A stretch of DNA of 40,953 nucleotides from Escherichia phage vB_Ec_Tarrare, in the sequence record OQ507919.1; one strand, 5' to 3'. Shown piece by piece: positions 4,024 to 40,902 of the stretch. Numbering within the stretch: position 1 is the first letter of the stretch; the number at the start of each line of letters is the position of its first letter. The position numbers and the translations under genes were made by a program. The notes under the pieces are model-generated. The model saw nothing but the letters and a program-made list of their open reading frames with translations. It had not been told where the DNA came from and did not search any database.

Positions 4024-4028
4024 TGAAT

Positions 4029-4051
4029 TAATACGACTCACTATTGAGGAG
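4029..4051 (+). promoter_or_regulatory. phage RNAP promoter (phi1.1A-like)
   Basis: taatacgactcactattgaggag; T7 -17 to -1 consensus except T at -1. Confidence 0.8.
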
Positions 4052-4055
4052 TGAT

Positions 4056-4078
4056 TAATACGACTCACTAATGGGAAA
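4056..4078 (+). promoter_or_regulatory. phage RNAP promoter (phi1.1B-like)
   Basis: taatacgactcactaatgggaaa, in tandem 27 bp downstream of the first promoter. Confidence 0.8.
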
Positions 4079-4176
4079 CCTTAAGGGTCTTAGAGATTTA
4101 ACTTTAAGACCTTTAAGTTCTAATTTAAGATTTAATTTAAGATTACTAAGAGATTAACTTTAAGGAGACTTTAAGT
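4079..4176 (+). other. AT-rich region downstream of tandem promoters; candidate primary replication origin and leader of gene 1.1
   Basis: About 100 bp of low-GC sequence with reiterated tttaag / aatttaag / aactttaag units immediately after phi1.1A/B. In T7 the primary origin occupies this position. Confidence 0.4.
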
Positions 4177-4314
4177 ATGCGTAATTTTGAGAAAACTACT
4201 CGTAGCAAAGCACGTAACTGGACTTACGAAGAAGTCTACGGTAACAAAGAAGGTCGCAAGTTTAACAAGACTAAGCGTGACCGTTCTCATAAACGCAATT
4301 GGGAGGCTCAATAA
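4177..4314 (+). CDS. 1.1: gene 1.1 small basic protein
   Basis: 45 aa, MRNFEKTTRSKARNWTYEEVYGNKEGRKFNKTKRDRSHKRNWEAQ; close match to T7 gp1.1 as recalled; SD aaggag upstream. Too short for the ORF track. Confidence 0.8.
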   Translation: MRNFEKTTRSKARNWTYEEVYGNKEGRKFNKTKRDRSHKRNWEAQ

Positions 4315-4571
4315 TGGGACGTCTATACAGTGGAAACCTAAACGCATTCAAAGGTGCTTGCAATCGTCTCTATCAGATGGACTTTGCGGTAATCGTCAAT
4401 GAGTTCCACGATGCAATGTACCGTCAAGAATGCATGAAGGTACGCATAGAAGACCGAGCAGGGAACATAATCATACAGGACACCTTCTGTCACTATGACG
4501 TAGACGTCTTGTACAACACAGCCACCGCTTGGTTGAACGGTATGGCTGACCAGTTACAACACTGGAAGTAA
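4314..4571 (+). CDS. 1.2: gene 1.2 protein (inhibitor of host dGTP triphosphohydrolase)
   Basis: 85 aa from the ATG at 4314, overlapping the 1.1 stop (taATGg). MGRLYSGNL...QLQHWK matches T7 gp1.2 in length and sequence. Confidence 0.85.
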   Translation: MGRLYSGNLNAFKGACNRLYQMDFAVIVNEFHDAMYRQECMKVRIEDRAGNIIIQDTFCHYDVDVLYNTATAWLNGMADQLQHWK

Positions 4572-4591
4572 TTGAACTCACTATCGGGAGA
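4569..4591 (+). promoter_or_regulatory. phage RNAP promoter, divergent (phi1.3-like)
   Basis: taattgaactcactatcgggaga; the only candidate with C rather than T at -1 and with a weak -12 to -10 region. Confidence 0.55.
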
Positions 4592-4594
4592 ATG

Positions 4595-4622
4595 CTTAAG
4601 GTCGCTCACTGAGTGGCCTTAG
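4595..4622 (+). promoter_or_regulatory. RNase III-type hairpin (R1.3-like)
   Basis: cttaaggtcgctcactgagtggccttag; stem aaggtcgctcac / gagtggcctt. Confidence 0.5.
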
Positions 4623-4651
4623 TCGTTTAACCCTAACAGGAGACAATCATT

Positions 4652-5671
4652 ATGACTATCAAGACTAACCCATTCAAAGCTGTGTCTTTCGTAGAATCTG
4701 CCGTTAAGAAGGCTCTGGACAACGCTGGGTATCTTATCGCTGACGTTAAGTATGATGGTGTACGCGGTAACATTCTGGTCGATAACGTTTCAAATGCGCG
4801 CTGGCTCTCTCGTGTTTCTAAACCGATTCCGGCACTATCGCACTTGGACGGGTTCGACTCCCGCTGGCAGCGCCTACTGCGTGATGACCGATGCTTCTAC
4901 CCCGATGGCTTTATGCTCGATGGCGAGCTAATGGTCAAGGGCGTGGACTTCAACACTGGCTCCGGCCTACTTCGCACGAAGAACGTTAAGAAGAAGAACG
5001 AGCTACACGCTATCTATCACGATGGCGAAATGACAGACAAACTGTTCCGTCTGAACTCTAAGTTCCTTAGTGTTCGACTCTACGCAATCCTACCGATTCA
5101 CATTGTGGAATCAGGTGAGGACTTCGACGTTATGACATGCCTCATGCAAGAACACGTTAAGTATATGCTGCCTCTGCTGCGGGAATACTTTCCTGAAATC
5201 GAATGGCAAGCGGCTGAGTCTTACGAAGTGTATGACATGGTAGAACTCACTAAGCTGTACGAGAAGAAACGCGAAGAAGGTCATGAAGGTCTTATCGTTA
5301 AAGACCCATTAGGTCACTACCGTCGAGGCAAGAAGTCCGGCTGGTGGAAAATGAAGCCTGAGAACGAGGCAGACGGTATCATTCAAGGTGTTGTGTGGGG
5401 TACTGAGGGTTTAGCTAATGAAGGCAAAGTGATTGGATTTGAAGTGCTTCTAGAGAGTGGTCGCGTAGTTAACGCTTGCAACATCTCACGCGCTTTAATG
5501 GACGAGTTCACTAGCACGGTTAATACCGCTGCGGCTAAACACGAGGATGCTCCTTACATTGGGTGGGCTTGTCAGATTAGCTACATGGAAGAGACACCTG
5601 ATGGCTCTCTGCGTCACCCTTCCTTCGTTATGTTCCGTGGAACCGAAGATAACCCTACCGAAAAGATGTAA
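4652..5671 (+). CDS. 1.3: ATP-dependent DNA ligase
   Basis: 339 aa; carries the adenylation motif ADVKYDGVRG (KxDG) and is collinear with T7 ligase. Confidence 0.95.
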   Translation: MTIKTNPFKAVSFVESAVKKALDNAGYLIADVKYDGVRGNILVDNVSNARWLSRVSKPIPALSHLDGFDSRWQRLLRDDRCFYPDGFMLDGELMVKGVDFNTGSGLLRTKNVKKKNELHAIYHDGEMTDKLFRLNSKFLSVRLYAILPIHIVESGEDFDVMTCLMQEHVKYMLPLLREYFPEIEWQAAESYEVYDMVELTKLYEKKREEGHEGLIVKDPLGHYRRGKKSGWWKMKPENEADGIIQGVVWGTEGLANEGKVIGFEVLLESGRVVNACNISRALMDEFTSTVNTAAAKHEDAPYIGWACQISYMEETPDGSLRHPSFVMFRGTEDNPTEKM

Positions 5672-5678
5672 TACCCAA

Positions 5679-5708
5679 TGGCTCACCGAAAGGTGGGCCT
5701 TTTGCGTT
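5679..5708 (+). terminator. early (host RNAP) terminator TE-like hairpin plus U-tract
   Basis: ggctcaccgaaaggtgggcc followed by ttttgcgttt, immediately after the ligase stop, which is the position of TE in T7. Confidence 0.6.
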
Positions 5709-5709
5709 T

Positions 5710-5732
5710 CAATTCAACTCACTAATGGAGGA
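5710..5732 (+). promoter_or_regulatory. class II-type phage RNAP promoter
   Basis: caattcaactcactaatggagga; shares the recurring core aactcactaatggagga, whose +1 to +6 ggagga also serves as SD for the ATG 4 nt downstream. Confidence 0.5.
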
Positions 5733-5736
5733 CATT

Positions 5737-5940
5737 ATGGACTTACTGAATCCAGCTAACCCGCTCAATATGGTAAACCCTGCGTCACCTTGGTATCACG
5801 TATGGAACTCTGTACCTGAGGAATCACACACAGTGGTTACTGAACTTACCGCTGGAGAATCTTTCATTATCTACGGTATCGTAGGAGTGTTCTGCCTGAT
5901 GATCGCAGGTCTACTCTGGCTGATGCTAAGCGATATTTAA
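5737..5940 (+). CDS. small hypothetical membrane protein (gene 1.4/1.5-region ORF)
   Basis: 67 aa from the ATG at 5737 (the ORF-track start at 5725 lies inside the promoter). The C-terminal stretch FIIYGIVGVFCLMIAGLLWLML is a predicted transmembrane helix. Confidence 0.6.
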   Translation: MDLLNPANPLNMVNPASPWYHVWNSVPEESHTVVTELTAGESFIIYGIVGVFCLMIAGLLWLMLSDI

Positions 5941-6740: not shown

Positions 6741-6879
6741 CTTCAAGTCTACCCCACCTTCTGACCATCTATCTGATAACTTCACAACGTGCTCAGAGTG
6801 GTGCCGTAAGATGTGGGAAGAAACGTTTGACGATGCGTACATCAAGTTGTATGAACTTTGGAAATCAAGAGGGCAATAA
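6733..6879 (+). CDS. 1.8: gene 1.8 protein
   Basis: 48 aa, [48 protein letters not shown]; near-identical to T7 gp1.8 as recalled; overlaps the 1.7 stop. Confidence 0.8.
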
Positions 6880-6880
6880 T

Positions 6881-7072
6881 ATGTCACATTTAGATACAGG
6901 TTCGCTTCGAGTGGACAACAAGAAGTTTTGGGCTACGGTAGAGACCGCTGCTCAATCGTTTGAGGTTCCTATCTACGCTACTGACTTAGACGATGCGTTA
7001 GAGCTAGCGGAGTGGCAGTATGTACCTGCTGGCTTCGAGGTCACTCGTATTCGTCCAGACGTTCGCGGTTAA
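6881..7072 (+). CDS. 2: gene 2 protein, inhibitor of host RNA polymerase
   Basis: 63 aa from the ATG at 6881, [63 protein letters not shown]; matches T7 gp2. The ORF-track start at 6728 is in frame but upstream of the real start. Confidence 0.85.
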
Positions 7073-7092
7073 TAGGACTCACTAATGGGGAC
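7070..7092 (+). promoter_or_regulatory. class II phage RNAP promoter (phi2.5-like)
   Basis: taataggactcactaatggggac, overlapping the gene 2 stop; the transcript would begin with the hairpin ggggacactcccc. Confidence 0.6.
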
Positions 7093-7133
7093 ACTCCCCG
7101 AATCACTCAATCATTACTTTAAGGAGACTCATT

Positions 7134-7829
7134 ATGGCTAAGAAGATTTTCACCTCTGCGCTGGGTACTGCTGAACCTTACGCTTACATTGCTAAACCTG
7201 ACTACGGCAACGAAGAGCGTGGCTTTGGGAACCCTCGTGGTGTGTACAAAGTTGACCTGACTATTCCCAACAAAGACCCGCGCTGCCAGCGTATGGTCGA
7301 TGAAATCGTGAAGTGTCACGAAGAGGCTTATGCTGCTGCCGTTGAGGAATACGAAGCTAATCCACCTCAGGTAGCTCGTGGTAAGAAGCCACTGCGCCCA
7401 TACGAAGGTGACATGCCGTTCTTCGATAACGGTGACGGTACGACTACCTTTAAGTTTAAGTGCTACGCTTCCTTCCAAGACAAGAAGACCAAAGAGACCA
7501 AACACATTAATCTGGTCGTTGTGGACTCTAAAGGTAAGAAGATGGAAGAAGTGCCTGTTATCGGTGGTGGCTCAAAACTGAAAGTTAAATACTCTCTGGT
7601 TCCTTACAAGTGGAACACTGCTGTAGGTGCAAGCGTTAAGCTGCAATTAGAATCCGTTATGCTGGTCGAATTGGCTACCTTTGGTGGCGGTGAAGACGAT
7701 TGGGCTGATGAAGTCGAAGAGAACGGCTATGTTGCCTCTGGTTCTGCCAAAGCGAGCAAACCACGCGATGAAGAAAGCTGGGAAGAAGACGACTCAGAAG
7801 AACAAGTAGACGAAGACGGAGACTTCTAA
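7134..7829 (+). CDS. 2.5: single-stranded DNA-binding protein
   Basis: 231 aa, MAKKIFTSALGTAEPYAYIAKPDYG..., with the acidic C-terminal tail ...EEDDSEEQVDEDGDF characteristic of T7 gp2.5. Confidence 0.95.
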   Translation: MAKKIFTSALGTAEPYAYIAKPDYGNEERGFGNPRGVYKVDLTIPNKDPRCQRMVDEIVKCHEEAYAAAVEEYEANPPQVARGKKPLRPYEGDMPFFDNGDGTTTFKFKCYASFQDKKTKETKHINLVVVDSKGKKMEEVPVIGGGSKLKVKYSLVPYKWNTAVGASVKLQLESVMLVELATFGGGEDDWADEVEENGYVASGSAKASKPRDEESWEEDDSEEQVDEDGDF

Positions 7830-11192: not shown

Positions 11193-11477
11193 ATGATGAC
11201 TCAAGGTAAAGTATCTACAACCATCCGTCTGTCTGATACTGCTGACCAGTGGAACCGCCGAGTTCACGTCAACGTTCGCAACTCAAAGGCAACTATGGTT
11301 TACCGTTGGAAATCTCCATGCAGTAAGAAAGACCATACTCAGCGCATGACTCTTACAGAAGTACAAGCTGCCCGTTTAGTGGCTGCATTGACGAAAGCTG
11401 TAGGCAAAGCTACAGAAGGCGACGTTGAACGCCGTAATGAGTACATGGCTGAGTTCTTTACAGCTATCAGTGAGTGA
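11193..11477 (+). CDS. 4.5: gene 4.5 protein
   Basis: 94 aa; SD aggag upstream; position matches T7 gene 4.5. Confidence 0.7.
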   Translation: MMTQGKVSTTIRLSDTADQWNRRVHVNVRNSKATMVYRWKSPCSKKDHTQRMTLTEVQAARLVAALTKAVGKATEGDVERRNEYMAEFFTAISE

Positions 11478-11480
11478 TAA

Positions 11481-11514
11481 ACTCAAGGTCGCCTACGGGT
11501 GGCCTTTATGATTA
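11481..11514 (+). promoter_or_regulatory. RNase III-type hairpin (R4.7-like)
   Basis: actcaaggtcgcctacgggtggcctttatgatta. Confidence 0.5.
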
Positions 11515-11537
11515 TTATTCATTATAGGAGAATAACT

Positions 11538-11957: not shown

Positions 11958-11975
11958 TCAATAGGAGAATACAAT

Positions 11976-14090
11976 ATGCTCGTTTCTGATATTGAAGCTA
12001 ACGGCCTCTTAGAGACCGTCACTAAGTTCCACTGCGGGGTAATCTATGACTACCAAACTGGTGAGTACATTAGCTATCGCCCTAGTGACTTCGGTGCGTA
12101 TCTGGATGCGCTTGAAGCCGAGGTAGCTAGAGGTGGGCTTATTGTGTTCCACAACGGGCACAAGTATGACGTCCCTGCGTTAACCAAACTGGCTAAGCTA
12201 CAGTTGAACCGTGAGTTCCATCTCCCTCGTGAGAACTGTGTGGACACCTTGGTGTTGTCTCGTTTGATTCATGCAAACTTGAAAGACACTGATATGGGTC
12301 TGTTACGTGCAGGTAAAATCCCTGGGAAAAGGTTCGGTTCCCATGCGTTGGAAGCTTGGGGCTACCGTCTAGGCGAGATGAAGGGTGAATACAAGGATGA
12401 CTTCAAGCGTATGCTGGAAGAGCAAGGCGAAGAGTATGTGGACGGCATGGAGTGGCTTGCGTTCAACGAAGAGATGATGGCTTATAACGTTCAAGACGTT
12501 GTGGTCACTAAGGCTCTCCTTGAGAAGCTACTGGCTGACAAACACTACTTCAAACCTGAGATTGACTTCACAGACGTCCATCATTCTACCTTCTGGATGG
12601 AAGCTATCGAGTCTATCGACGTTGAACATCGTGCTGCTTGGTTGCTGGCTAAGCAGGAGCGTAACGGTTTCCCATTCAACGCTAAGGCTATCGAAGACCT
12701 GTACGTAGAGTTGGCTACTCGTCGCTCTGAGTTGCTCATGAAGTTAACCGATACGTTCGGCTCTTGGTATCAACCTAAAGGTGGTACAGAGATGTTCTGT
12801 CACCCTAGGACTGGTAAGCCTCTGCCGAAGTATCCACGCATTAAGACCCCAAAGGTCGGTGGTATCTTCAAGAAGCCTAAGAACAAAGCTCAGCGTGAAG
12901 GTCGTGAACCTTGTGAGTTAGACACTCGTGAGTACGTGGCTGGTGCTCCGTACACTCCTGTAGAGCACGTTGTGTTTAACCCTTCAAGTCGTGACCACAT
13001 CCAGAAGAAACTTCAAGAAGCTGGATGGGTGCCAACTAAGTTCACCGATAAGGGTGCCCCTGTGGTGGACGATGAGGTGCTAGAAGGTGTTACTGTAGAT
13101 GACCCTGTGAAGCAATCCGCTATTGACCTGATTAAAGAGTACCTGATGATTCAGAAGCGAATCGGACAGGCTGCCGAGGGTGACAAAGCGTGGCTTCGCT
13201 ACGTACAAGAGGATGGAAAGATTCATGGTTCTGTTAACCCTAATGGGGCTGTTACCGGACGTGCTACACATGCGTTCCCAAACCTCGCACAGATTCCTTC
13301 CGTTCGTGCTGCTTATGGAGAGCAGTGCCGTAGCGCTTTTGGTGCTGAACATCATCTGGATGGTCTAACTGGTAAGCCTTGGGTTCAGGCTGGCATCGAC
13401 GCCTCAGGTCTGGAGTTGCGCTGCTTGGCTCACTTCATGGCTCGCTTCGATAACGGTGAGTACGCTGATGAAATCCTCAACGGTGATATTCACACTAAGA
13501 ACCAGATGGCTGCTGAGTTACCTACTCGTGATAACGCTAAGACCTTCATCTACGGTTTCCTTTATGGTGCTGGCGATGAGAAGATTGGTCAAATCGTTGG
13601 TGCTGGTAAGGAACGTGGTAAGGAACTCAAGAAGAAATTCTTAGAGAACACTCCGGCTATCGCTGCTCTCCGTGAGTCAATCCAACAGACGCTTGTTGAG
13701 TCCTCTCAATGGGTAGCTGGTGAACAGCAAGTCAAGTGGAAACGCCGTTGGATTAAAGGTCTGGATGGTCGTAAGGTTCACGTTCGTAGTCCTCATGCTG
13801 CCTTGAATACTCTGCTGCAATCTGCTGGTGCTCTTATCTGCAAACTGTGGATTATCAAGACCGAAGAGATGCTCGTAGAGAAAGGCTTGAAGCATGGCTG
13901 GGATGGTGACTTTGCGTACATGGCATGGGTACACGATGAAATTCAGGTAGCTGCCCGTACCGAAGAGATCGCTAAGGTGGTCGTAGAGACTGCTCAGGAA
14001 GCTATGCGCTGGGTAGGAGACCACTGGAACTTCCGTTGTCAATTGGACACCGAAGGTAAGATTGGCCCGAACTGGGCTGTATGTCATTAA
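11976..14090 (+). CDS. 5: DNA polymerase (family A, 3'-5' exonuclease plus polymerase, thioredoxin-binding type)
   Basis: 704 aa, same length as T7 gp5; MLVSDIEANGLLETVTKFHCGVIYDY (exo I motif DIEANG) and C-terminal ...IGPNWAVCH. Confidence 0.98.
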   Translation: MLVSDIEANGLLETVTKFHCGVIYDYQTGEYISYRPSDFGAYLDALEAEVARGGLIVFHNGHKYDVPALTKLAKLQLNREFHLPRENCVDTLVLSRLIHANLKDTDMGLLRAGKIPGKRFGSHALEAWGYRLGEMKGEYKDDFKRMLEEQGEEYVDGMEWLAFNEEMMAYNVQDVVVTKALLEKLLADKHYFKPEIDFTDVHHSTFWMEAIESIDVEHRAAWLLAKQERNGFPFNAKAIEDLYVELATRRSELLMKLTDTFGSWYQPKGGTEMFCHPRTGKPLPKYPRIKTPKVGGIFKKPKNKAQREGREPCELDTREYVAGAPYTPVEHVVFNPSSRDHIQKKLQEAGWVPTKFTDKGAPVVDDEVLEGVTVDDPVKQSAIDLIKEYLMIQKRIGQAAEGDKAWLRYVQEDGKIHGSVNPNGAVTGRATHAFPNLAQIPSVRAAYGEQCRSAFGAEHHLDGLTGKPWVQAGIDASGLELRCLAHFMARFDNGEYADEILNGDIHTKNQMAAELPTRDNAKTFIYGFLYGAGDEKIGQIVGAGKERGKELKKKFLENTPAIAALRESIQQTLVESSQWVAGEQQVKWKRRWIKGLDGRKVHVRSPHAALNTLLQSAGALICKLWIIKTEEMLVEKGLKHGWDGDFAYMAWVHDEIQVAARTEEIAKVVVETAQEAMRWVGDHWNFRCQLDTEGKIGPNWAVCH

Positions 14091-15671: not shown

Positions 15672-15781
15672 TTGCAGTTCTTGGTGTTGGCTTGTGCGCT
15701 ATTGCTGTAGGCATGTTGGCGTATGGTCTGTGGGACTTAGCTCAAATCCTGCGAACACTGCACAAATACAACATTAAGTAA
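15659..15781 (+). CDS. 6.3: gene 6.3-like small membrane protein
   Basis: 40 aa, METVIAVLGVGLCAIAVGMLAYGLWDLAQILRTLHKYNIK; one transmembrane helix; overlaps the end of gene 6. Confidence 0.5.
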   Translation: METVIAVLGVGLCAIAVGMLAYGLWDLAQILRTLHKYNIK

Positions 15782-15785
15782 TAAA

Positions 15786-15840
15786 CTCAAGGCCCTTATT
15801 TAATACGACTCACTATTGGGAGATAGGGGCCTTTATGATT
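15786..15840 (+). promoter_or_regulatory. RNase III-type hairpin (R6.5-like) with promoter in its loop
   Basis: ctcaaggccc ... ggggcctttatgatt; the stem arms aaggccc / ggggcctt flank the phi6.5 promoter. Confidence 0.5.
15801..15823 (+). promoter_or_regulatory. phage RNAP promoter (phi6.5)
   Basis: taatacgactcactattgggaga. Confidence 0.9.
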
Positions 15841-15874
15841 ATTACTTTAAGATTTAACCTTAAGGGAGGCGATT

Positions 15875-24542: not shown

Positions 24543-24962
24543 ATGATGTACATTAGGCCAACTACAGAAGGTGACATTAAGATTTTCAAACCATCACGAG
24601 AGGATAGACTTGAGGCTTTTGCTGCTGGGCATGACGCTACGTTTCCAGATGCCTCAGAGTGTGTTACTCTTTGGGGTAACGGAATGCCATTAGCTATAGG
24701 AGGTAACTGTGAGAATCAAGTTTGGTTCGTAACTAGTTATCATGTTGCACATTTGACACCTAGAGAAAAGATGGAGTTCCGAAAGGTAATCATTGAGTAT
24801 CGAGACAAGATGTTGGAACAGTACGAGACTCTTTGGAATTACGTTTGGGTAGGCAATAAGTCCCACATAAGGTTCCTCAAGACTATCGGTGCAGAGTTCC
24901 ATGAGGTCTACGGTAATGATGGTCAATTCCAGTTATTCACAATAAAGAAGGAGGCAACATGA
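24543..24962 (+). CDS. 13: gene 13 protein (internal virion / assembly protein)
   Basis: 139 aa; conserved blocks FPDASECVTL..PLAIGGNC, WFVTS, YRDKMLEQYETLWNYVWVGNKSHIRFLKTIGA as in T7 gp13 as recalled. Confidence 0.8.
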   Translation: MMYIRPTTEGDIKIFKPSREDRLEAFAAGHDATFPDASECVTLWGNGMPLAIGGNCENQVWFVTSYHVAHLTPREKMEFRKVIIEYRDKMLEQYETLWNYVWVGNKSHIRFLKTIGAEFHEVYGNDGQFQLFTIKKEAT

Positions 24963-25354
24963 AGCTCTGCAAGAAGTGTAACACAGTGAAGCCTATGGAC
25001 GAGTTTCACAATAAGAAAGGTAGGAAGGATGGTAAGGCGTCTACTTGTAAAGCCTGTGTCAACAATAGAGTGAGACCTTACGATTCCGAGAAGAACAAGA
25101 ACATGCACTTGAAGAAACTGTATGGTATAACCCTTGATGAATACAACGCTATGTTGGAAGCTCAAGGTCACTGCTGTGCAATCTGCAAAGGAACCGAAGG
25201 GATGAAGCTCGGTAGGAACATGGCGGTAGACCACTGCCACACAACGGGTAAAGTCCGAGGGATACTTTGCTCCCACTGTAATCGTGGCTTAGGGTTCTTC
25301 AAGGACAACATTGAGAGCCTCAAAGCTGCCATTAAGTATCTAGGAGGTGAATGA
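24959..25354 (+). CDS. Endonuclease VII-family (T4 gp49-like zinc-binding) nuclease, probable free-standing homing endonuclease
   Basis: 131 aa; CxxC ... HCCAICKG ... DHCHTTGKVRGILCSHCN is the Endo VII His-Cys box; start ATG overlaps the gene 13 stop and the stop overlaps the gene 14 start. T7 has no gene at this position as far as I recall. Confidence 0.8.
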   Translation: MKLCKKCNTVKPMDEFHNKKGRKDGKASTCKACVNNRVRPYDSEKNKNMHLKKLYGITLDEYNAMLEAQGHCCAICKGTEGMKLGRNMAVDHCHTTGKVRGILCSHCNRGLGFFKDNIESLKAAIKYLGGE

Positions 25355-32249: not shown

Positions 32250-32303
32250 GGAGGTCTAACCACTTCCCTCCCGATTCTTTAAGATTAACTTTAAGGAGGT
32301 CAA

Positions 32304-34229
32304 ATGGCTAACGTAATCAAGACCGTTTTGACTTATCAGCTAAATGGTACTACTCGTGATTTTAATATTCCGTTTGAGTATCTGGCTCGTAAGTTTGTTG
32401 TGGTCACACTGTTAGGTAAAGACCGTAAGGTACTTACTCTGAATACTGATTATCGATTTGCAACTCGTACTACCATCTCCACCACTAAGGCTTGGGGACA
32501 GGCAGATGGTTACACTCACATTGAGTTACGCCGAAACACCTCAGCGACTGAACGCTTGGTGGACTTTACTGACGGTTCGATTCTACGCGCGTATGACCTG
32601 AACGTTGCTCAGATTCAGACTATGCATATTGCAGAAGAAGCTCGTGACCTTACTGCTGATACTATCGGTGTCAACAACAATGGGGACTTAGATGCTCGAA
32701 ACCGTAAGATTGTAAACTTGGCAGACGCGGTTAACCCTCGTGATGCTGTCCCTCTAGGTCAGATTCAGGGGATAAACCAGAATGCTTGGCAAGCACGAAA
32801 TGAGGCTCAACAGTTCAGAAACCAAGCTGAGACCTTTAAGAACCAAGCCCAAGGTTTCCGTAACGAAGCAGAAGCGTTCCGAAACACTACTAACCAGAAC
32901 GCACAGACTACTACAGCCGATCGTGCAGCCGCTCTACAGTCAAAGGAAGAAGCTGAGCGCGCTCGTGCTGCTGCCCAACAGTCACAACAACAGGCTGCTG
33001 CATCTCAGACAGCCGCAAGTAACTCAGCCGCTGAGGCTAAGCGTGAAGCAGATCGCTCCAAAACAGAGGCTGATAGGGCTAAAGTAGAGGCCGATAAGTT
33101 AGGAAACTGGAACCAACTTGCAGGTACTGTGGATAACGTGACTGGTACTAGCGTGACCTTTAAGGACAAGGTAGGTGCTCTAGGTGGGTTCGTATCGGCT
33201 ACTCCTGATGGATACCGATTGAAGTACACTAACTTCTCTACGATTCTACGTCAAGACGCTAATGCGTTCTACATACTGACTACCAATAAGGGAGATGTTA
33301 ACGGGCCATTCAACTCGCTACGTCCTATGTACATTGACAACGCATCGGGATGGGTGACGTTTGGTAACGGTGCGGGTGTTAATGGTAGACTCACTACGAC
33401 AGAGGGTGTTGCGGTTCCTAACTCTAAGATGTACTTCAACAAGAGCCTGATTCAGTTGGAGAGCCAGAACTTCACAGACAGGGCGGTGAACATGCGAGTT
33501 TGGGGTAACGCCTCAGGTCGTAATAACGTGTGTGAATGGGGCGATGCTCACGGTTGGCTGATGTATGTACAGCGTAGGGATTGGAATGCTAACGCTGGGT
33601 CAAACATCCAGTTAAGTGTTAACGGACAGGTGGTGGCTAATAACATTATATCCACTGGAGGGGCTTACTTCCAGAATGGACATGCTGTAACGCTGGAATC
33701 TGCGTCCAATATGGCACACTACATCATCTCTAAGGATGGCGGCAGGAACAACTGGTACGTTGGTCGTGGGACTAATGGCAACAATGACGTCGCTCTCCAC
33801 TCTTATGTACACGGAACTACTCTTTCTCTACGCCAGAACTATGCGCAGGTCAACAAGCACTTCTATGTAGGCTCCGCTGTAGTAGCAACTGATGGTAACG
33901 TTCAGGGTACTAAATGGGGCGGTAAGTGGCTTGATGTGTTCCTGAATGATACATACATTAAGAAGACCAAAGCTTGGACTCAGGTATGGTCTGGAAGTGC
34001 TGGTGGTGGTGTCAGTGTGACCGTATCCCAAGACTTGCGATTCCGTAATATCTGGATTAAGTGCGCCAACAACTCTTGGAACCACTTCCGTACAGGCCCT
34101 GATGGTATTTACTTCATTGCGTCTGATGGTGGCTGGTTGCGATTCCAGATTCACTCCAACGGTAGAGGCTTCAAGAACATTGCAGACAGTCGCTCTGTTC
34201 CTCAGGCTATCATGGTGGAGAACGAATAA
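32304..34229 (+). CDS. 17: tail fibre protein
   Basis: 641 aa; N-terminal tail-attachment domain (MANVIKTVLTYQLNGTTRDFNIPFEYLARKFVVVTL) and C-terminal tip (...WIKCANNSWNHFRTGPDGIYFIASDGGWLRFQIHSNGRGFKNIADSRSVPQAIMVENE) match T7 gp17; the central part differs and is longer. Confidence 0.95.
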   Translation: MANVIKTVLTYQLNGTTRDFNIPFEYLARKFVVVTLLGKDRKVLTLNTDYRFATRTTISTTKAWGQADGYTHIELRRNTSATERLVDFTDGSILRAYDLNVAQIQTMHIAEEARDLTADTIGVNNNGDLDARNRKIVNLADAVNPRDAVPLGQIQGINQNAWQARNEAQQFRNQAETFKNQAQGFRNEAEAFRNTTNQNAQTTTADRAAALQSKEEAERARAAAQQSQQQAAASQTAASNSAAEAKREADRSKTEADRAKVEADKLGNWNQLAGTVDNVTGTSVTFKDKVGALGGFVSATPDGYRLKYTNFSTILRQDANAFYILTTNKGDVNGPFNSLRPMYIDNASGWVTFGNGAGVNGRLTTTEGVAVPNSKMYFNKSLIQLESQNFTDRAVNMRVWGNASGRNNVCEWGDAHGWLMYVQRRDWNANAGSNIQLSVNGQVVANNIISTGGAYFQNGHAVTLESASNMAHYIISKDGGRNNWYVGRGTNGNNDVALHSYVHGTTLSLRQNYAQVNKHFYVGSAVVATDGNVQGTKWGGKWLDVFLNDTYIKKTKAWTQVWSGSAGGGVSVTVSQDLRFRNIWIKCANNSWNHFRTGPDGIYFIASDGGWLRFQIHSNGRGFKNIADSRSVPQAIMVENE

Positions 34230-34286
34230 TAACTTAACACTCAAGGAAAGACGTGTAGTCCACGGATGGACTCTCAAGGAGGTATC

Positions 34287-34499
34287 ATGCTATCTTTAGA
34301 CTTCAACAACGAACTCGTCAAGGCCGCTCCTATTGTGGGGACTGGTGTTGCCGATGTGACAACCAGATTGTTCTTTGGGCTGTCACTTAATGAGTGGTTC
34401 TACGTAGCCGCTATCGCCTACACAGTGGTTCAAATTGGTGCCAAGGTAGTCGATAAGATTATTGATTGGAAGAAGGCAACGAAGGAGATTGGAGAATGA
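34287..34499 (+). CDS. 17.5: holin (class II, gene 17.5)
   Basis: 70 aa from the ATG at 34287 (SD aaggagg); MLSLDFNNELVKAAPIVGTGVADVTTRLFFGLSLNEWFYVAAIAYTVVQIGAKVV matches T7 gp17.5. Confidence 0.9.
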   Translation: MLSLDFNNELVKAAPIVGTGVADVTTRLFFGLSLNEWFYVAAIAYTVVQIGAKVVDKIIDWKKATKEIGE

Positions 34500-34762
34500 G
34501 TGACAAGTCTTTAATCAAATTCCTAGAAATGTTGGATACAGAGATGGCTCAGCGAATGCTCATGGATTTACAGAATGACGAGCGCCGGACACCTCAACTG
34601 TACAACGCTATAGGTAAACTACTGGAACGCCATAAGTTCCAAATAGGTAAACTGACTCCTGATGAGAACATCTTGGGCGGTCTTGCTGCTGGTCTTGAAG
34701 ACTACAATAAGACGGTCGGAAAGGATGGCCTGATGGATGACGATATTTACACATTGCAGTGA
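34496..34762 (+). CDS. 18: terminase small subunit (DNA maturase A)
   Basis: 88 aa from the ATG at 34496, MSDKSLIKFLEMLDTEMAQRM...DDDIYTLQ; matches T7 gp18. Confidence 0.9.
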   Translation: MSDKSLIKFLEMLDTEMAQRMLMDLQNDERRTPQLYNAIGKLLERHKFQIGKLTPDENILGGLAAGLEDYNKTVGKDGLMDDDIYTLQ

Positions 34763-34764
34763 TA

Positions 34765-34799
34765 TACTCAAGGCCACTACAGCCAGTGGTCTTTATGGA
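34765..34799 (+). promoter_or_regulatory. RNase III-type hairpin (R18.5-like)
   Basis: tactcaaggccactacagccagtggtctttatgga. Confidence 0.5.
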
Positions 34800-34857
34800 T
34801 GTCATTGTCTACGCGATGGTGCATCTACGCGAAATCTGAGAAATGATGGGAGGATTT

Positions 34858-35298
34858 ATGTTACGGTTTTTACGTAGGCTCATCCCTTGGGTTGTCGCTG
34901 GGGCGCTATTCGGGTATGGATGGCACCTTGGGGCTGACTCTATGGATGCCAAATGGAAACAGGAGGTATACAATGAATACGTTAAGAAAACGGAAGCTAG
35001 AGCAACTACTCAGAAAGAGGTCGATGCGATTAGCAAGCGCTACCAAGAGGAGATTGCCTCTCTGGAGGGCAGCACTGATAGGATGCTTGATGACTTGCGT
35101 AACGATAATAAGCGGTTGCGCGTCAGAGTCAAGAATCTTAGTGCCACCTCAGGAGGTCTCTGTGGACGCGAGTCTGATGGTAGAGCCGAACTTGACGAGC
35201 GAGATGCTAAGCGTATTCTCGCAGTGACCCAAAAGGGAGACGCTTGGATTAAAGCTCTCCAAGACACCATACGTAAATTACAACAGAAGGAGAATTAA
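34858..35298 (+). CDS. 18.5: Rz-like i-spanin (inner-membrane spanin component)
   Basis: 146 aa from the ATG at 34858 (SD gggagg); N-terminal transmembrane helix LIPWVVAGALFGYGW and periplasmic coiled coil; matches T7 gp18.5. Confidence 0.9.
   Translation: MLRFLRRLIPWVVAGALFGYGWHLGADSMDAKWKQEVYNEYVKKTEARATTQKEVDAISKRYQEEIASLEGSTDRMLDDLRNDNKRLRVRVKNLSATSGGLCGRESDGRAELDERDAKRILAVTQKGDAWIKALQDTIRKLQQKEN
34973..35227 (+). CDS. 18.7: Rz1-like o-spanin lipoprotein, embedded in the +1 frame of 18.5
   Basis: 84 aa from the ATG at 34973 (SD aggagg); lipobox TIISGC and Pro-rich mature part; matches T7 gp18.7. Confidence 0.8.
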   Translation: MNTLRKRKLEQLLRKRSMRLASATKRRLPLWRAALIGCLMTCVTIISGCASESRILVPPQEVSVDASLMVEPNLTSEMLSVFSQ

Positions 35299-35299
35299 T

Positions 35300-36139
35300 A
35301 TGGCCCTACACGAAGTCAACCTGTGGAATTTCAATTCCCGCACACATTCGTCTCTCGACGTTGGAGCGCCTTACGGTGGCCTCTACTCTGGACGCATAGA
35401 CTTACCTGAAAGTTACCGAAAGTCTAAGATGTTCAAGGTTAGAGTTTCTGGAACACACGCTCTAGAGACCTACGCTAGCTATTCTGCTATGCTTACAGGA
35501 ATCGGAGGAACGTCGGTGTCAAACCTAAATGGTAGAGAAGCGATCATTGAGTTTAACACATCGTCCTCAACAAACGGGTTGCGAGGCATCTACTCCGTAG
35601 AGGGCGTGTTTGTTAGGGATTGGCATCCAGACGAAGCGTTGACAAAAGGTGCCGCCGAGATGTTCATAAAGCCGCATGGTGTAGACGAGTACGTTTGGAC
35701 TGGTTCTCAGTCTGTAGGTAACGGCTCAGAGTTAAACCTATTGTCCCTAAACGGGTTCTCTACCGATGTTGCCACTGGAGCCACTACCATTAACGCTGCG
35801 TCTCTTGTGGTGCTTCCTGCGGAGGTGAAGAGTAGAGGGCTGATCATTTCTGTAATCCTAGATGGCACTTATGACCAACAAGGGCCACATGAGATGAAGG
35901 TTCAGATACGAAGCGCTGATGGTAAGACGTTGCAACAATCTAGCCCATTGTATGTTCTGGACAAGAACGTCAAGAAGCTTACCGCAACATTTGCAGACTA
36001 CACCCTTGGTGTGTATGACGAAAGTAGTACCACTGGATTTAAGCTTGTATTTATCAATGATAGTACATCCAATATGTCACTGACTGGTGTACGAATCGTT
36101 GTTCAAAATATCTCTAATCCAGACTTCACACGTTCTTAA
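35300..36139 (+). CDS. hypothetical protein, no T7 counterpart (first gene of a two-gene late-region insertion)
   Basis: 279 aa ORF; SD aaggag 7 nt upstream of the ATG, which sits 1 nt after the Rz stop. Rich in S/T/G/N/V and apparently beta-rich; no signal peptide, transmembrane helix or catalytic motif recognised by eye. Confidence 0.8.
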   Translation: MALHEVNLWNFNSRTHSSLDVGAPYGGLYSGRIDLPESYRKSKMFKVRVSGTHALETYASYSAMLTGIGGTSVSNLNGREAIIEFNTSSSTNGLRGIYSVEGVFVRDWHPDEALTKGAAEMFIKPHGVDEYVWTGSQSVGNGSELNLLSLNGFSTDVATGATTINAASLVVLPAEVKSRGLIISVILDGTYDQQGPHEMKVQIRSADGKTLQQSSPLYVLDKNVKKLTATFADYTLGVYDESSTTGFKLVFINDSTSNMSLTGVRIVVQNISNPDFTRS

Positions 36140-36154
36140 AGAAGGAGAGTTAAA

Positions 36155-37267
36155 ATGTTAGTTACTCGAACGGCAACTTACACCGATTGGATATTCATGG
36201 CTGCTCACGCAAACGAGAGGGTCGATGACATTGGTCAAGGTCTCTTAGAGGGTCATATTTATTTCCGTTATGCCTATGACATGCTGAACGATGGTGACGA
36301 GGTAGTACGAGAGGTATCACATGTACATCTTAGCGATGGGTCAACATACCCTCTAGGAGAAGGAGTGTCCTCCGAAAAGATAGACATCACGTACCACGGT
36401 CTCACTAGTGATGGTAGCGTATACCTTGAGGTTAATGGACATAAGGGAATTGGTGTTAGTAGCATTACTCGTACCCTGACCATTCAATATGACGATGGGA
36501 AGGTTCCTGTTCTGGACACTGACCAACTCAAAGGGATTCTTTCAGAACTTCATGACAGCCTTGAGGCTAGTATGATTAATACCGCAAACGCTGTCAAAGA
36601 GGAACTGCGAGACGAGTTGGAAACCAAGGTGCTGGACGCCAAGGAGTCCTGCAACGAGGCTACCGAGGCTGTTAACACCGAGTTGACCGCCAAGATCGCA
36701 AATGAGAGTGGTCGCATTGATAGCCTAACGAGTACCCTTGTGACTGTTCAGGGTAACTTGGATACTACCATGAAGCGCGTTGGTAAAATCTCTCCCAATA
36801 TGGGTAAGTGGTCTTTCGGTCGATACACCATCAACTCGAAGCAGACCAACAACTTACTGGCTGCTGCGCCTACAGCGTTGGCGCCGGAAGGGTCTATCTT
36901 CACATATGATGATACCAACAAGGTCTTTAAGATGTCTGGAGGTGCTGCCCCAACAGACAGGATTCTGCGGGTTACGTTCACTACAGGGATTGACACGTTG
37001 AGTGCTGACTACCGAGGATACTTATCGTTCATGCTGCGAAACTCCAGTGGTGGAGTCTTGGCTAGCGACATGAGGTTCCTAAACATGGATGCTGGTCTTA
37101 CCCAACAACTGAGCGCCATACAGTTCAGCCTTGAGCTATACTTAGAGGCGTCTAAAGGTCATCCAGTATACAACTCAGGTATCCAGTTAGCTTTCCACAA
37201 CAGTGCTAACACGGCTCTTGCCATACTGTCCGGTGGTGTTGCAAGCTTCACCTTACTGACAGCTTAA
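36155..37267 (+). CDS. hypothetical protein with central coiled-coil segment, no T7 counterpart (second gene of the insertion)
   Basis: 370 aa ORF; SD aaggag 8 nt upstream. Residues ~121-210 (DTDQLKGILSELHDSLEASMINTANAVKEELRDELETKVLDAKESCNEATEAVNTELTAKIANESGRIDSLTSTL) look alpha-helical with a heptad-like pattern, flanked by beta-rich N- and C-terminal regions. Confidence 0.8.
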   Translation: MLVTRTATYTDWIFMAAHANERVDDIGQGLLEGHIYFRYAYDMLNDGDEVVREVSHVHLSDGSTYPLGEGVSSEKIDITYHGLTSDGSVYLEVNGHKGIGVSSITRTLTIQYDDGKVPVLDTDQLKGILSELHDSLEASMINTANAVKEELRDELETKVLDAKESCNEATEAVNTELTAKIANESGRIDSLTSTLVTVQGNLDTTMKRVGKISPNMGKWSFGRYTINSKQTNNLLAAAPTALAPEGSIFTYDDTNKVFKMSGGAAPTDRILRVTFTTGIDTLSADYRGYLSFMLRNSSGGVLASDMRFLNMDAGLTQQLSAIQFSLELYLEASKGHPVYNSGIQLAFHNSANTALAILSGGVASFTLLTA

Positions 37268-37288
37268 TTTAAATAAAGGAGGGACGCT

Positions 37289-39052
37289 ATGTCTTATACC
37301 CAAAGTAACCGCAATGCTCTCATTGTGGCTCAACTAAAGGGTGACTTCGTAGCGTTCCTATTCGTCTTATGGAAGGCGTTAAACCTTCCGGTTCCTACCC
37401 GTTGTCAGATTGACATGGCTAAGGTATTGGCGAATGGGGACAACAAGAAGTTTATCCTACAGGCTTTCCGTGGTATCGGTAAGTCATTCATCACTTGTGC
37501 GTTCGTTGTGTGGACGTTATGGCGTGATCCTCAGATGAAGATACTCATTGTGTCTGCCTCTAAGGAACGTGCTGACGCTAACTCCATCTTCATCAAGAAC
37601 ATCATTGATTTGCTGCCTTTCCTTGCTGAGTTGAAACCTCGCGCTGGTCAACGTGACTCTGTGATTAGTTTTGACGTAGGCCCTGCTAAGCCTGACCATT
37701 CTCCTAGTGTGAAGTCCGTAGGTATCACTGGTCAGTTGACTGGTAGCCGTGCTGACATCATCATTGCGGATGACGTTGAGATTCCGTCTAACAGTTCCAC
37801 TATGGGCGCTCGTGAGAAGCTCTGGACTCTCGTTCAGGAATTTGCTGCATTGTTGAAACCTCTGGAGACCTCTCGTGTTATCTACCTTGGTACGCCTCAG
37901 ACAGAGATGACTCTCTATAAGGAACTTGAGGACAACCGTGGTTACACTACGATTATCTGGCCCGCTCTTTATCCACGCTCTAAGGAGGAAGACTTGTACT
38001 ACAGCAACCGTCTGGCTCCTATGCTCCGTGAAGAGTACAATGAGAATCCAGAAGGTCTTGCAGGTACTCCTACTGACCCTGTACGATTCGATACTGACGA
38101 TCTTCGTGAGCGTGAGTTGGAATACGGTAAGGCTGGCTTCACTTTGCAGTTCATGCTTAACCCTAACCTTAGTGATGCCGAGAAGTACCCTCTGAGGCTC
38201 CGTGACGCGATCGTAGCGGCTCTGGACTTAGAGAAGGCCCCAATGCATTACCAATGGCTCCCGAACCGTCAGAACATTATTGAGGACTTACCTAACGTTG
38301 GTCTTAAGGGTGATGATCTACATACGTATCATGAGTGCTCCAGTAACTCTGGTCAGTACCAACAGAAGATACTTGTGGTTGACCCTAGTGGTCGCGGTAA
38401 GGACGAAACAGGTTACGCCGTGTTGTACACTCTGAACGGCTACATCTACCTAATGGAAGCTGGTGGTTTCCGTGAAGGTTACTCCGATAAGACCCTTGAG
38501 GCTCTCGCTAGGAAAGCCAAACAGTGGAAGGTTCAAACGGTTGTCTACGAGAGTAACTTCGGTGACGGTATGTTTGGTAAGGTGTTTAGTCCTATCCTTC
38601 TTAAACATCATAATTGCATCATGGAAGAGATTCGTGCTCGTGGTATGAAGGAAGTACGTATTTGTGATACCTTAGAGCCTGTCATGCAGACTCACCGCTT
38701 GGTTATCCGAGATGAGGTCATTAGGGCAGACTATCAGACTGCTCGTGATGCTGACGGTAAACATGATGTCAAATACTCGCTGTTCTACCAGATGACTCGC
38801 ATCACTCGTGAGAAAGGTGCTCTTGCTCATGATGACCGATTGGATGCCTTAGCGTTAGGCGTAGAGTTCCTACGTGAGTCCATGCAACTGGATAGCGTCA
38901 AGGTTGAAGGTGAGGTGCTTGCAGACTTCCTTGAAGATCACATGAGTCGTCCAACTATTGGCGCTCAGAGTATCATTGAGATGTCTTTAGGTGGTATCGA
39001 CTTGTACGCAGAGGATGAAGGCTGGGGTAACTCTCAGTTCATCGAATGGTGA
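37289..39052 (+). CDS. 19: terminase large subunit (DNA maturase B)
   Basis: 587 aa; ATPase and nuclease regions; collinear with T7 gp19. Confidence 0.97.
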
Positions 39053-39075
39053 CTTATGCATAGATAGTGCATAAG
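39053..39075 (+). repeat. perfect inverted repeat immediately after the terminase stop
   Basis: cttatgca-tagatag-tgcataag; 8-bp arms, 7-nt loop. Confidence 0.7.
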
Positions 39076-39519: not shown

Positions 39520-40010
39520 GAGTCAAGTCCTAAGGTTATACCTATAGGCCCTCTAATGGTCTATCCTAAGGTCTATACCTAAGGGTAGGCCATACCTATT
39601 GGCTACCTAGAGATAAGCCTAAGGAGGCTCCTAGAGAGGCCCTAAGGAGTCCTTTAAAATATACCATAAAAATCTGAGTGACTATCTCATAGTTTAAACA
39701 TTTGGATTTACCCCCATAGGGTCACTTCAAGTCCCATAAAGACATCCCCATCCTAAGGTTTCTACTCAAAGAGAGACCATAGGAGACCTTGAGAGACCAT
39801 AAAGAGGTGGGTAGTGTGGTACTTTGAGTTATCTATAAGTGTGTCTCTATGTGTTCCTATCTGTTATCACTCCTAAGGTATCCTCTTAAGGTCATATCCT
39901 AAGGTCATCTCTTAAGGTATCAACATAAGGAGGAGGAGACTACACTTAAAGTATATACATAAAGACCACATAAAGACCATACATAAAGTGTATACATAAA
40001 GATGCCTTGT
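39520..40010 (+). repeat. genome-end non-coding region with arrays of short direct repeats (cctaaggt / ccataaag / cataaagac units)
   Basis: No ORF of 60 aa or more; reiterated heptamer-like units such as tcctaaggt (at least 6 copies) and cataaaga (4 copies at 39950-40000), corresponding to the CCTAAAG / CATAAAGAC arrays inside and next to the T7 terminal repeat. Confidence 0.6.
39685..39877 (+). repeat. approximate single-copy terminal repeat / concatemer junction (physical genome ends)
   Basis: tctcatagt ... acccccataggg ... gtgtctctatgtgttcctatctgttatcactcctaagg parallels the T7 terminal repeat (TCTCACAGTGT...CCCCCATAGGGGG...GTCTCTCTGTGTCCCTATCTGTTACAGTCTCCTAAAG) as recalled. Boundaries are inferred. 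Confidence 0.3.
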
Positions 40011-40048
40011 AGTTAGCTATAGAGAGTTATCTCTAATCATGGTCTTAT

Positions 40049-40071
40049 TAATACAACTCACTATTGGGAGA
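40049..40071 (+). promoter_or_regulatory. phage RNAP promoter (phiOL-like)
   Basis: taatacaactcactattgggaga (A for G at -11), in the same relative place as T7 phiOL. Confidence 0.75.
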
Positions 40072-40104
40072 TACTCTATAGACTACTTAAAGAGGAGGGT
40101 TATC

Positions 40105-40548
40105 ATGTATCAAGGATTAACTATATCAAATGGTGTCTTAATAAGGGAGTCAACAGGTAAACCTTGTAAGACATTCTCTAACGGTAAATACCTAAGGATA
40201 AACCATAAAGGCCGGATGTATTACCTACACCGTGTCTTGTGGGAACTTACACACGGCTCAATACCTAAGGGTTACACTATAGACCATATAGACGGTAATC
40301 CTACAAATAACAATATTGACAACCTAAGGTTAGCCTCTTATAGTGAGAACAACATGAATCGGGTATCTACGGTAGACAATGGCCTACCTCAAGGTATCTA
40401 CTGGTGTAACTCTAAGAGTCGCTATGTGGCTCAGGTGGTAGCTCAAGGCGTTAAGAGAACAAAGACCTCAAAGAGCCTTGATGTAGTCACTGAGTGGGTT
40501 AAAGAGACACGAAAAGAGATTCATAAAGAATTTGCCATTAAGTGTTGA
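40105..40548 (+). CDS. HNH-AP2 homing endonuclease-like protein in the left-end leader
   Basis: 147 aa from the ATG at 40105 (SD aggagg); YTIDHIDGNPTNNNIDNLRLASYSENNMN is the HNH motif, with an AP2-like C-terminal half; paralogous in type to gene 3.8. T7 has no gene between phiOL and the A promoters as far as I recall. Confidence 0.8.
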   Translation: MYQGLTISNGVLIRESTGKPCKTFSNGKYLRINHKGRMYYLHRVLWELTHGSIPKGYTIDHIDGNPTNNNIDNLRLASYSENNMNRVSTVDNGLPQGIYWCNSKSRYVAQVVAQGVKRTKTSKSLDVVTEWVKETRKEIHKEFAIKC

Positions 40549-40716: not shown

Positions 40717-40837
40717 ACACCACAACAGCGAACGGGACGCTATACTCTCGGGTTCAGGACGGAGAGCCTTGTGTGGCTTGATGAAGTGGACATAGCGAAG
40801 GCACTAAACACCCAACGCTAAACACTTTGAATGATAA

Positions 40838-40873
40838 ACTCAAGGTCATCCTGATGGGTGGCCTTTATGATTA
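40838..40873 (+). promoter_or_regulatory. RNase III-type hairpin upstream of gene 0.3 (R0.3-like)
   Basis: actcaaggtcatcctgatgggtggcctttatgatta; 35 nt identical to the site at 107-141. Confidence 0.5.
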
Positions 40874-40902
40874 CCACTCATTAACTGATGAGGATATACA
40901 CT

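Follow-up and report, generated by a model that had tools for sequence, protein, structure and literature searches.

A gene pair predicted to encode exchangeable knob-bearing surface proteins between the spanin and large terminase genes of Escherichia phage vB_Ec_Tarrare

Fibre, knob and decoration proteins compared with the Tarrare gene pair

Among podoviruses, phage T7 serves as the reference. Its virion is regarded as bearing a single receptor-binding protein (RBP), gp17, and an undecorated capsid, and no decoration protein is known for the capsids of the T7 group (Studiervirinae). This study concerns two open reading frames (ORFs), designated ORF-A and ORF-B, located between the Rz/Rz1 spanin genes and the gene for the large terminase subunit (TerL, gene 19) of Escherichia phage vB_Ec_Tarrare, the complete 40,953 bp genome of which constitutes the window analysed. 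A sequence-only reading had reported two long ORFs of 279 and 370 amino acids in this position and had leaned towards a virion-associated or receptor-binding module, while allowing for a late counter-defence or superinfection-exclusion function. The coordinates were confirmed exactly, and the two products are identical to the NCBI Tarrare entries 'putative hydrolase' and 'hypothetical protein TARRARE_45', respectively. The analysis established the gene structure, the position in the late operon, the folds predicted for both proteins, how conservation changes along them, where the cassette begins and ends, and the shuffling of domains; on this evidence ORF-A and ORF-B seem likely to represent an exchangeable pair of trimeric adhesins or fibres displayed on the virion.

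Several described phage proteins share parts of this architecture. The Sf6 gp9 needle knob, the PRD1 P5 spike and the fibres of cyanophages A-1(L) and A4 combine a trimeric shaft with a tumour necrosis factor (TNF)-like knob, as is proposed for ORF-B. However, the identity of ORF-A and ORF-B to these proteins is only 10-15%, there is no homology at the sequence level and the anchor is unrelated; moreover, the ORF-B shaft is hendecad-built, the genes lie between Rz and TerL and the genome is of T7 type, without a needle. The whiskers of T4, formed by fibritin (wac), have an N-terminal anchor, a trimeric coiled-coil and a small C-terminal domain, and are accessory to, and non-essential for, the core infection machinery. 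No homology to fibritin was found beyond a coil-level PHROG match in one of 36 ORF-B members, and ORF-B differs in its hendecad-based coil and in ending with a TNF-like knob of 155 amino acids rather than a foldon.

Capsid decoration and head-fibre proteins, including B2 gp45, phi29 gp8.5 and the PhiM1 alpha-paw, are small proteins that form trimers or dimers on the particle surface and have late genes of their own; some carry a fibrous extension for which a role in adhesion has been proposed (PMC11654681, PMC11440229). Neither ORF-A nor ORF-B showed similarity to B2 gp45 using hhalign or to phi29 gp8.5 in PDB profile searches. Among the KP34-like Autographiviridae, a second RBP gene lies 3' of the maturase and lysis genes and its product docks via an N-terminal MALxxLV motif, a constant short element that in KP34viruses is followed by highly variable specificity domains (PMC6872550). 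The Tarrare pair resembles such secondary RBPs (KP34 gp57-type, KP32 gp38 and the SP6/K1-5 tailspikes) in consisting of extra genes away from gene 17, and the MALxxxNLW N-terminus of ORF-A is reminiscent of the KP34virus motif, a likeness that may be coincidental. In contrast to the KP34, KP32 and SP6-type proteins, the models of ORF-A and ORF-B contain no beta-helix depolymerase, and the proposed anchors are domains of 105-121 amino acids rather than peptides. A Pfam scan of Tarrare gp17 revealed no branching domain of the T4gp10-like type, although a diverged domain could escape such a scan. Relative to all of these systems, the two anchor domains, the locus in a T7-group genome and the exchange of the two genes together as a cassette are new here.

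Predicted structure, family and exchange of the pair

The phage-promoter consensus TAATACGACTCACTATTGGGAGA was found at 32227 (phi17), with the next copy at 39134 (phiOR). No match to the consensus was observed between these positions and no terminator-like hairpin was found by scanning 32250-39052. Because neither a promoter nor a terminator intervenes between phi17 and the end of gene 19, ORF-A and ORF-B belong to the late phi17 transcript; the earlier claims that nothing interrupts transcription between phi17 and gene 19, and that both ORFs are expressed late, are consistent with these scans. The sequence also bore out the Shine-Dalgarno sites (AAGGAG) previously noted before each ORF and the placement of the ORF-A start codon 1 nt past the Rz stop codon (Table 1). 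The G+C contents of ORF-A and ORF-B (0.467 and 0.481, respectively) match that of the genome (0.473), as does their codon usage, and the module is therefore considered resident rather than a recently acquired foreign moron.

Monomeric AlphaFold2 (AF2) models were built on family alignments, which were shallow, and reached a predicted local distance difference test (pLDDT) score of 76 for ORF-A and 85 for ORF-B. The ORF-A model consists of two beta-domains, comprising residues 1-105 and 125-271, separated by a short linker with no shaft. The N-terminus, MALxxxNLW, is invariant (M1 A2 L3 ... N7 L8 W9) and conservation is even along the length of the protein at approximately 57% identity. The ORF-B model comprises a beta-domain (1-113), an uninterrupted helix of 89 residues (122-210) and a beta-sandwich (215-369) in which pLDDT is mostly above 90. 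Hydrophobic residues recur along the helix at intervals of 3.65-3.8 residues in all 36 ORF-B homologues (p=0.002 for the Tarrare protein against shuffled sequences), a periodicity that indicates hendecad repeats. The length of this shaft varies from 88 to 139 amino acids among homologues and reaches approximately 180 in P0027, P0028 and P0051. A different C-terminal domain was considered for the longer variants (458-463 amino acids) and rejected, since they have the same type of knob on a shaft of about twice the length.

Conservation within ORF-B is markedly uneven. Mean identity is approximately 63% in the anchor and 58% in the first part of the shaft, falling to approximately 20% in the remainder of the shaft and 25% in the knob, which from the alignments is a gradient typical of receptor-binding proteins.

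Both C-terminal domains were predicted to form a ten-stranded jelly-roll beta-sandwich of TNF topology, and the two knobs are remotely homologous to one another (hhalign E 4e-5 over 129 columns). The top structure matches were fibre tips, namely the Sf6 gp9 knob, PRD1 P5, the tail fibres of cyanophages A-1(L) and A4, the receptor-binding domain of TM4 gp23 and the RBP of lactococcal phage 1358. Matches in BFVD bore the names 'Sf6-type needle knob', 'tail fiber', 'virion component', 'C1q domain' and 'trimeric coiled-coil viral fiber'. In the model of ORF-B the knob is C-terminal to the shaft, at the tip; that of ORF-A stands on its short linker only. The fold family and the amphipathic shaft point to homotrimers, the predictions themselves being of monomers.

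The statement that neither ORF belongs to a known family held against Pfam, NCBIfam and PADLOC. Pfam gave no match at E values up to 1 for either protein, including to Phage_T7_tail (PF03906), which matched Tarrare gp17 at 3.8e-62. Across Pfam, NCBIfam, PADLOC and PDB sequence profiles the only similarities were to coiled-coil composition (apolipoprotein, MukB, LeoA). The PADLOC defence models, a library without anti-defence genes, yielded no match for ORF-A and for ORF-B only LeoA, at the level of the coiled-coil (E 0.016).

The slot between Rz and TerL had been described as empty in T7. In the T7-group phage 13a only 10 nt separate gene 18.5 from the start of gene 19, with no intervening gene, and in all megablast matches to Tarrare the Rz and TerL flanks were joined within approximately 610 bp, without the insert. 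When 50,697 phage records were searched by tblastn, neither ORF-A nor ORF-B had a match at E <=1e-3, and the divergent homologue P0080 had none at E <=1. A relaxed search with the ORF-A knob, alone among the searches of phage records, recovered relatives in N4-like phages. A scan of IMG/VR with the ORF-B anchor profile gave no confirmed locus, and neither the insert nor ORF-B was found in complete E. coli genomes or plasmids. Tarrare is the one isolate carrying the module; neither protein recurs in any deposited phage record, and thus no well-characterised family is routinely annotated at this position.

Homologues of the pair were recovered exclusively from Logan assemblies of public sequencing runs, in which about 35-40 metagenomic T7-like contigs have the two genes at this same position. 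The ORF-A family has 34 full-length members, all of 277-284 amino acids, and the ORF-B family approximately 40 homologues; these full-length relatives, together with the genome-like G+C content and codon usage, exclude the ORFs being chance reading frames or artefacts. An exhaustive HMMER search of 1.84 billion representative proteins with an anchor-only ORF-B profile gave 37 matches, of which approximately 30 are true members. The gene order Rz, A, B, TerL was constant in every T7-like contig examined (L001, L002/L003, L005, L006, L007, L008 and L009). By terminase identity the carriers are interleaved with the non-carrier 13a, and the module is thus not the mark of a single narrow clade.

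The exchange of the module was most apparent on comparison of Tarrare with contig L006. The encoded proteins share 98% identity in TerL, 96% in the N-terminus of gp17 and 89% in Rz, falling to 51% in ORF-A and 41% in ORF-B, and the module is more divergent than the distal tail fibre. At the DNA level, identity is 93-100% up to position 35254, 43-76% over 35300-37267 and approximately 94% from 37355. Near-identical flanks, a divergent module and sharp edges indicate that the pair is a discrete cassette replaced as a unit. Within ORF-B, homologues P0054 and P0058 share 98% identity in the anchor and 18% in the knob, while P0033 and P0034 share 68% and 90%, respectively. Clustering of 36 ORF-B sequences at >=50% identity gave 20 knob classes and a single anchor class, with a Spearman correlation of 0.21 between anchor and knob. 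As judged from these sequences, the anchor and knob of ORF-B are uncoupled by recombination. A further rearrangement was observed in L009, where the first gene has an ORF-A-like N-terminus (MAIQKVSVW; a weak match, hhalign E 0.05), a coiled-coil and a knob of the ORF-B type (E 8e-22), and the second has the ORF-B anchor and coiled-coil without a knob, an arrangement that reads as shuffling between the two genes.

All 21 ORF-A sequences searched matched the PHROG family phrog_17779, the Tarrare protein aligning over residues 128-273 with profile positions 59-206 of 208 (hmmscan E 1.7e-14). Profile positions 1-58 are unmatched by ORF-A, so that the match is to the knob only, and in comparisons of the knob with N4-like members hhalign gave E values of approximately 1e-10 along some 150 residues, a stretch that takes in the ISNPD/IINPE motif at the C-terminus. 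The members are proteins of 211-217 amino acids from N4-like Schitoviridae, labelled 'hypothetical' or 'protease', such as Bp4 orf14 (YP_009031975.1) and SP154 WIC41543.1. The knobs are homologous, whereas the N-termini are unrelated, the 105-residue beta-domain of ORF-A being confined to the T7-like family. In Salmonella phage SP154, the gene for WIC41543.1 lies directly 3' of that for WIC41542.1, a homologue of the Shigella phage B2 protein Dec gp45 (PDB 9d82, E 8e-52). The N-terminal 45 amino acids of this decoration protein share 49% identity with the N-terminus of the adjacent knob protein (E 2e-15), and the same module resembles Bp4 orf14 (E 1e-5). Dec gp45 is a trimeric decoration protein that has been resolved on the B2 capsid by cryo-electron microscopy (PMC11654681). 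Its C-terminal half is related to the head-fibre proteins of phi29 and crAss001. The shared gp45 N-terminal module implies that, in N4-like phages, the nearest relatives of the ORF-A knob sit on a capsid-decoration anchor. From these similarities we infer that the phrog_17779 proteins of N4-like phages are knob-tipped head fibres, and phages such as B2 and SP154 are predicted to have a second capsid protein combining the gp45 anchor with a TNF-like knob; no such protein is reported in the paper describing the structure and mass spectrometry of B2. The N-termini of ORF-A and ORF-B were themselves considered as gp45 homologues and rejected, hhalign of alignments A1 and A3 against WIC41542.1 giving E values of 0.26 and 0.095 with probability <1%. 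N4/G7C gp64, also considered, is a different protein.

Features of the locus and of the remaining genome

The features of the locus, together with the N4-like genes described above, are given in Table 1. Upstream of the module, Pfam identified gp17 (Phage_T7_tail), a holin, the small terminase and Rz.

Table 1. Features of the Tarrare locus and of related loci.
Feature	Position	Strand	Remarks
phi17-type late phage promoter	32227..32249	+	1 mismatch to T7 promoter consensus; last phage promoter 5' of module
Rz (i-spanin, gene 18.5)	34843..35298	+	Pfam Phage_lysis match; upstream flank; stop TAA 35296-35298
Rz1	34892-35227		Embedded in Rz; from ORF list
Shine-Dalgarno AAGGAG, ORF-A	35287..35292	+	Sequence reading; within Rz 3' end
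ORF-A	35300..36139	+	ATG, 279 aa; GenBank 'putative hydrolase', label unsupported
ORF-A N-terminal beta-rich domain (aa 1-105)	35300..35614	+	AF2 model, alignment A1; proposed anchor/docking domain
ORF-A C-terminal TNF/C1q-like jelly-roll knob (aa 125-271)	35672..36112	+	
Shine-Dalgarno AAGGAG, ORF-B	36142..36147	+	Sequence reading
ORF-B	36155..37267	+	ATG, 370 aa; GenBank 'hypothetical protein TARRARE_45'
ORF-B conserved N-terminal beta-domain (aa 1-121)	36155..36517	+	Proposed virion anchor; near-invariant YDDGKVPVLDTDQL junction at its end
ORF-B coiled-coil shaft (aa 122-212)	36518..36790	+	AF2 helix, hydrophobic periodicity
ORF-B C-terminal TNF/C1q-like knob (aa 213-369)	36791..37261	+	Hypervariable
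Terminase large subunit (gene 19)	37289..39052	+	Downstream flank; tblastn 92-93% identity to T7/13a/YpP gp19
Repeated hairpin-like element (…CTCAAGGTC…GGCCTTTATGATTA…)	97-151, 34757-34811, 40829-40883; also 11471-11524, 15775-15847	+ (34757-34811)	Families D5/D9; copy at 34757-34811 upstream of Rz
Decoration protein and phrog_17779 gene, N4-like phages	L011 (Salmonella phage SP154) 6451-6747 and 6824-7459; L012 (Bp4) 6803-7456		

Tarrare gp17 (32304-34229, + strand, 641 amino acids) joins a T7 N-terminal anchor to the Pfam domains Gp34_trimer, gp37_trimer and gp37_C. The gp17 proteins of L001 and L006 are of this type and that of L007 is a Collar-domain fibre. Dependence of the module on a T4 gp37-like distal fibre was considered and rejected, given that L007 carries the module with another gp17 and that 13a has the gp37-like region without the module. 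Contig L009 encodes two consecutive gp17-like proteins of 695 and 511 amino acids, both matching Phage_T7_tail, followed by a tail fibre assembly protein of 131 amino acids (phrog_188) (1671-5785). Alongside its variant A'/B' module, that contig may therefore encode a dual tail-fibre system.

A number of putative endonuclease genes were observed. An extra ORF of 131 amino acids (24959-25354, +) lies between gp13 and gp14, overlapping each by 4 nt, and strongly matches endonuclease VII-type (homing) endonucleases (phrog_2633, E 1e-44); in the carrier L007, unlike Tarrare, gp14 follows gp13 directly. An HNH_3 endonuclease ORF of 169 amino acids near the right end (40039-40548, +) has a G+C content of 39%, against 47% for the genome, and has the appearance of a mobile homing endonuclease gene. 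Within its annotated 5' end lies a sequence resembling a phage promoter, with 2 mismatches (40049-40071), so that the true start may be a downstream methionine. In L007 an HNH_3 endonuclease gene (11965-12360) is situated between ORF-B and the terminase gene, overlapping the start of the latter by approximately 35 nt.

The hairpin-like elements in Table 1 are intergenic, with the copies at 97 and 40829 being 89% identical. Their positions resemble those of RNase III sites in T7 and, by analogy with the T7 map, the element upstream of Rz is possibly R18.5-like. Directly after the terminase stop codon and before phiOR, a terminator-like hairpin with a 9-bp stem and a T-rich tail was identified (39053-39075, +). 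Short degenerate direct repeats of the TATCCTAAGG… and ACATAAAGA… families are clustered in the non-coding right end (39562-40002) and are reminiscent of the concatemer-junction and packaging repeats of T7.

Proposed role, alternative explanations and significance

The knobs, the anchor-coil-knob layout of ORF-B, the conservation gradient and the swapping of domains agree with the earlier lean towards a virion-associated or receptor-binding module, and we infer that the two proteins trimerise, are incorporated into the virion at an attachment site on the particle and bind a ligand. Under this proposal ORF-A and ORF-B would be expressed late as homotrimers on the virion surface, acting as accessory adhesins or receptor-binding proteins. 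ORF-B would form a short fibre, docked through its conserved N-terminal beta-domain to a conserved partner on the particle, with a hendecad coiled-coil shaft of about 90 residues, roughly 13 nm in length, and a TNF/C1q-like knob at the tip that would bind a structure on the host surface. ORF-A would be stubbier, with its own conserved N-terminal anchor bearing the second, distantly related TNF-like knob. Replacement of the whole cassette, combined with recombination between the anchor and knob of ORF-B, would generate many knob specificities on one constant anchor, which is the pattern expected of proteins that track variable host surfaces.

Two sites of attachment are suggested by analogy. 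The proteins may be mounted on the capsid as head fibres, as the N4-like relatives of the ORF-A knob with their B2 gp45 anchor would suggest, or may associate with the tail or gp17 as secondary receptor-binding proteins in the manner of KP34 and SP6-type phages. Whether they represent the first capsid-mounted head fibres of the T7 group (Studiervirinae), with two trimeric TNF-knob proteins from a hypervariable cassette on a T7-type capsid, is a more doubtful proposition that we put forward tentatively.

Several observations weigh against display on the virion. A literature search gave no proteomics or electron microscopy of Tarrare virions. Neither N-terminal domain resembles a known anchor, whether the T7 gp17 N-terminus (Pfam) or B2 gp45 (hhalign), and the gp17 proteins of carriers share no extra docking domain that is missing from the non-carrier 13a. 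The lengths of gp8, gp10, gp11 and gp12 are T7-like. The mass spectrometry table of the B2 virion does not include the phrog_17779 homologue, so that a structural role is presumptive for the relatives as well. The structural models are of AF2 monomers from shallow alignments, with the lower score for ORF-A, and jelly rolls of the TNF-like kind are widespread among proteins. Sharp-edged, hypervariable cassettes are also typical of anti-defence genes.

This last point leads to the explanation that the pair is a non-structural, late host-interaction cassette, whose products would counter host defences, act as decoys, exclude superinfecting phages or mask receptors on lysis debris. The knobs would then have a host or defence protein as their target, within the cell or outside it, rather than being mounted on the particle. 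Extreme divergence with sharp boundaries on near-identical backbones is as much a signature of anti-defence islands, and the position of the genes beside the lysis genes, the want of recognisable virion-anchor homology and the absence of the B2 homologue from the virion list would all be accommodated. Variable shaft length and the swapping of knobs on a constant anchor are, however, hard to explain for a soluble inhibitor, and it is fibre tips that the folds match best. In the T7 group, ocr and other anti-defence genes are found in the early region (in L001 and L009) and not in the late operon, neither N-terminus looks by eye like a signal peptide or transmembrane segment, and no match to PADLOC defence models was obtained, albeit with a library that omits anti-defence genes. 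On balance a non-structural cassette is considered unlikely.

Still less probable is a function as assembly factors or chaperones for the gp17 fibre, comparable to T4 gp38/gp57A or fibritin and absent from, or only transiently on, the particle. The T4-like Gp34_trimer, gp37_trimer and gp37_C domains in the gp17 of Tarrare, L001 and L006 would suit this role, as would the similar layout of T4 fibritin, to whose PHROG one ORF-B homologue is weakly matched via the coil. Against this, the module also stands beside the different, Collar-domain distal part of gp17 in L007, and the gp17 of the non-carrier 13a aligns with those of carriers through the gp37-like distal region. In addition, tail fibre assembly already has its own protein in L009 (phrog_188), and chaperones are normally conserved with their client, whereas the module is hypervariable.

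The annotation of ORF-A raises the further question of an enzyme, either a hydrolase or a protease. Apart from the 'putative hydrolase' label itself, homologues in Salmonella phages S5 and TR2 are named 'protease' and a CLB_P1 protein in BFVD 'putative protease'. Such labels look like propagated automatic annotation: no sequence match to a hydrolase was obtained from Pfam, NCBIfam or PDB, the fold is a TNF-like jelly roll, and in the alignment no His or Cys is invariant, nor do the invariant positions make up a recognisable catalytic constellation. Hydrolase entries among the fold matches of ORF-A were low-ranking only, and to carbohydrate-binding or accessory beta-sandwich domains. The label is unsupported, probably an echo of the 'protease' labels on distant relatives, and an enzymatic function is highly improbable.

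Removal of the 'hydrolase' annotation from ORF-A is one consequence of this analysis, and another is the link between phrog_17779 of N4-like phages and the anchor of a capsid decoration protein whose structure is known. If the proposed display on the virion is true, Tarrare would be a T7-group coliphage with two further fibre-and-knob surface proteins, exchanged as a cassette faster than the tail fibre, which would broaden the current view of the T7 virion. The ORF-B anchor has no relatives outside its small family, and its docking site would therefore be a new virion interface. For retargeting or display, the protein would be useful as a compact scaffold of natural origin, having a constant anchor, a tunable shaft length and a swappable knob. 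Should the more tentative head-fibre proposal prove true, the head of these phages would itself offer a programmable surface for adhesion that does not depend on the gp17 tail fibres.

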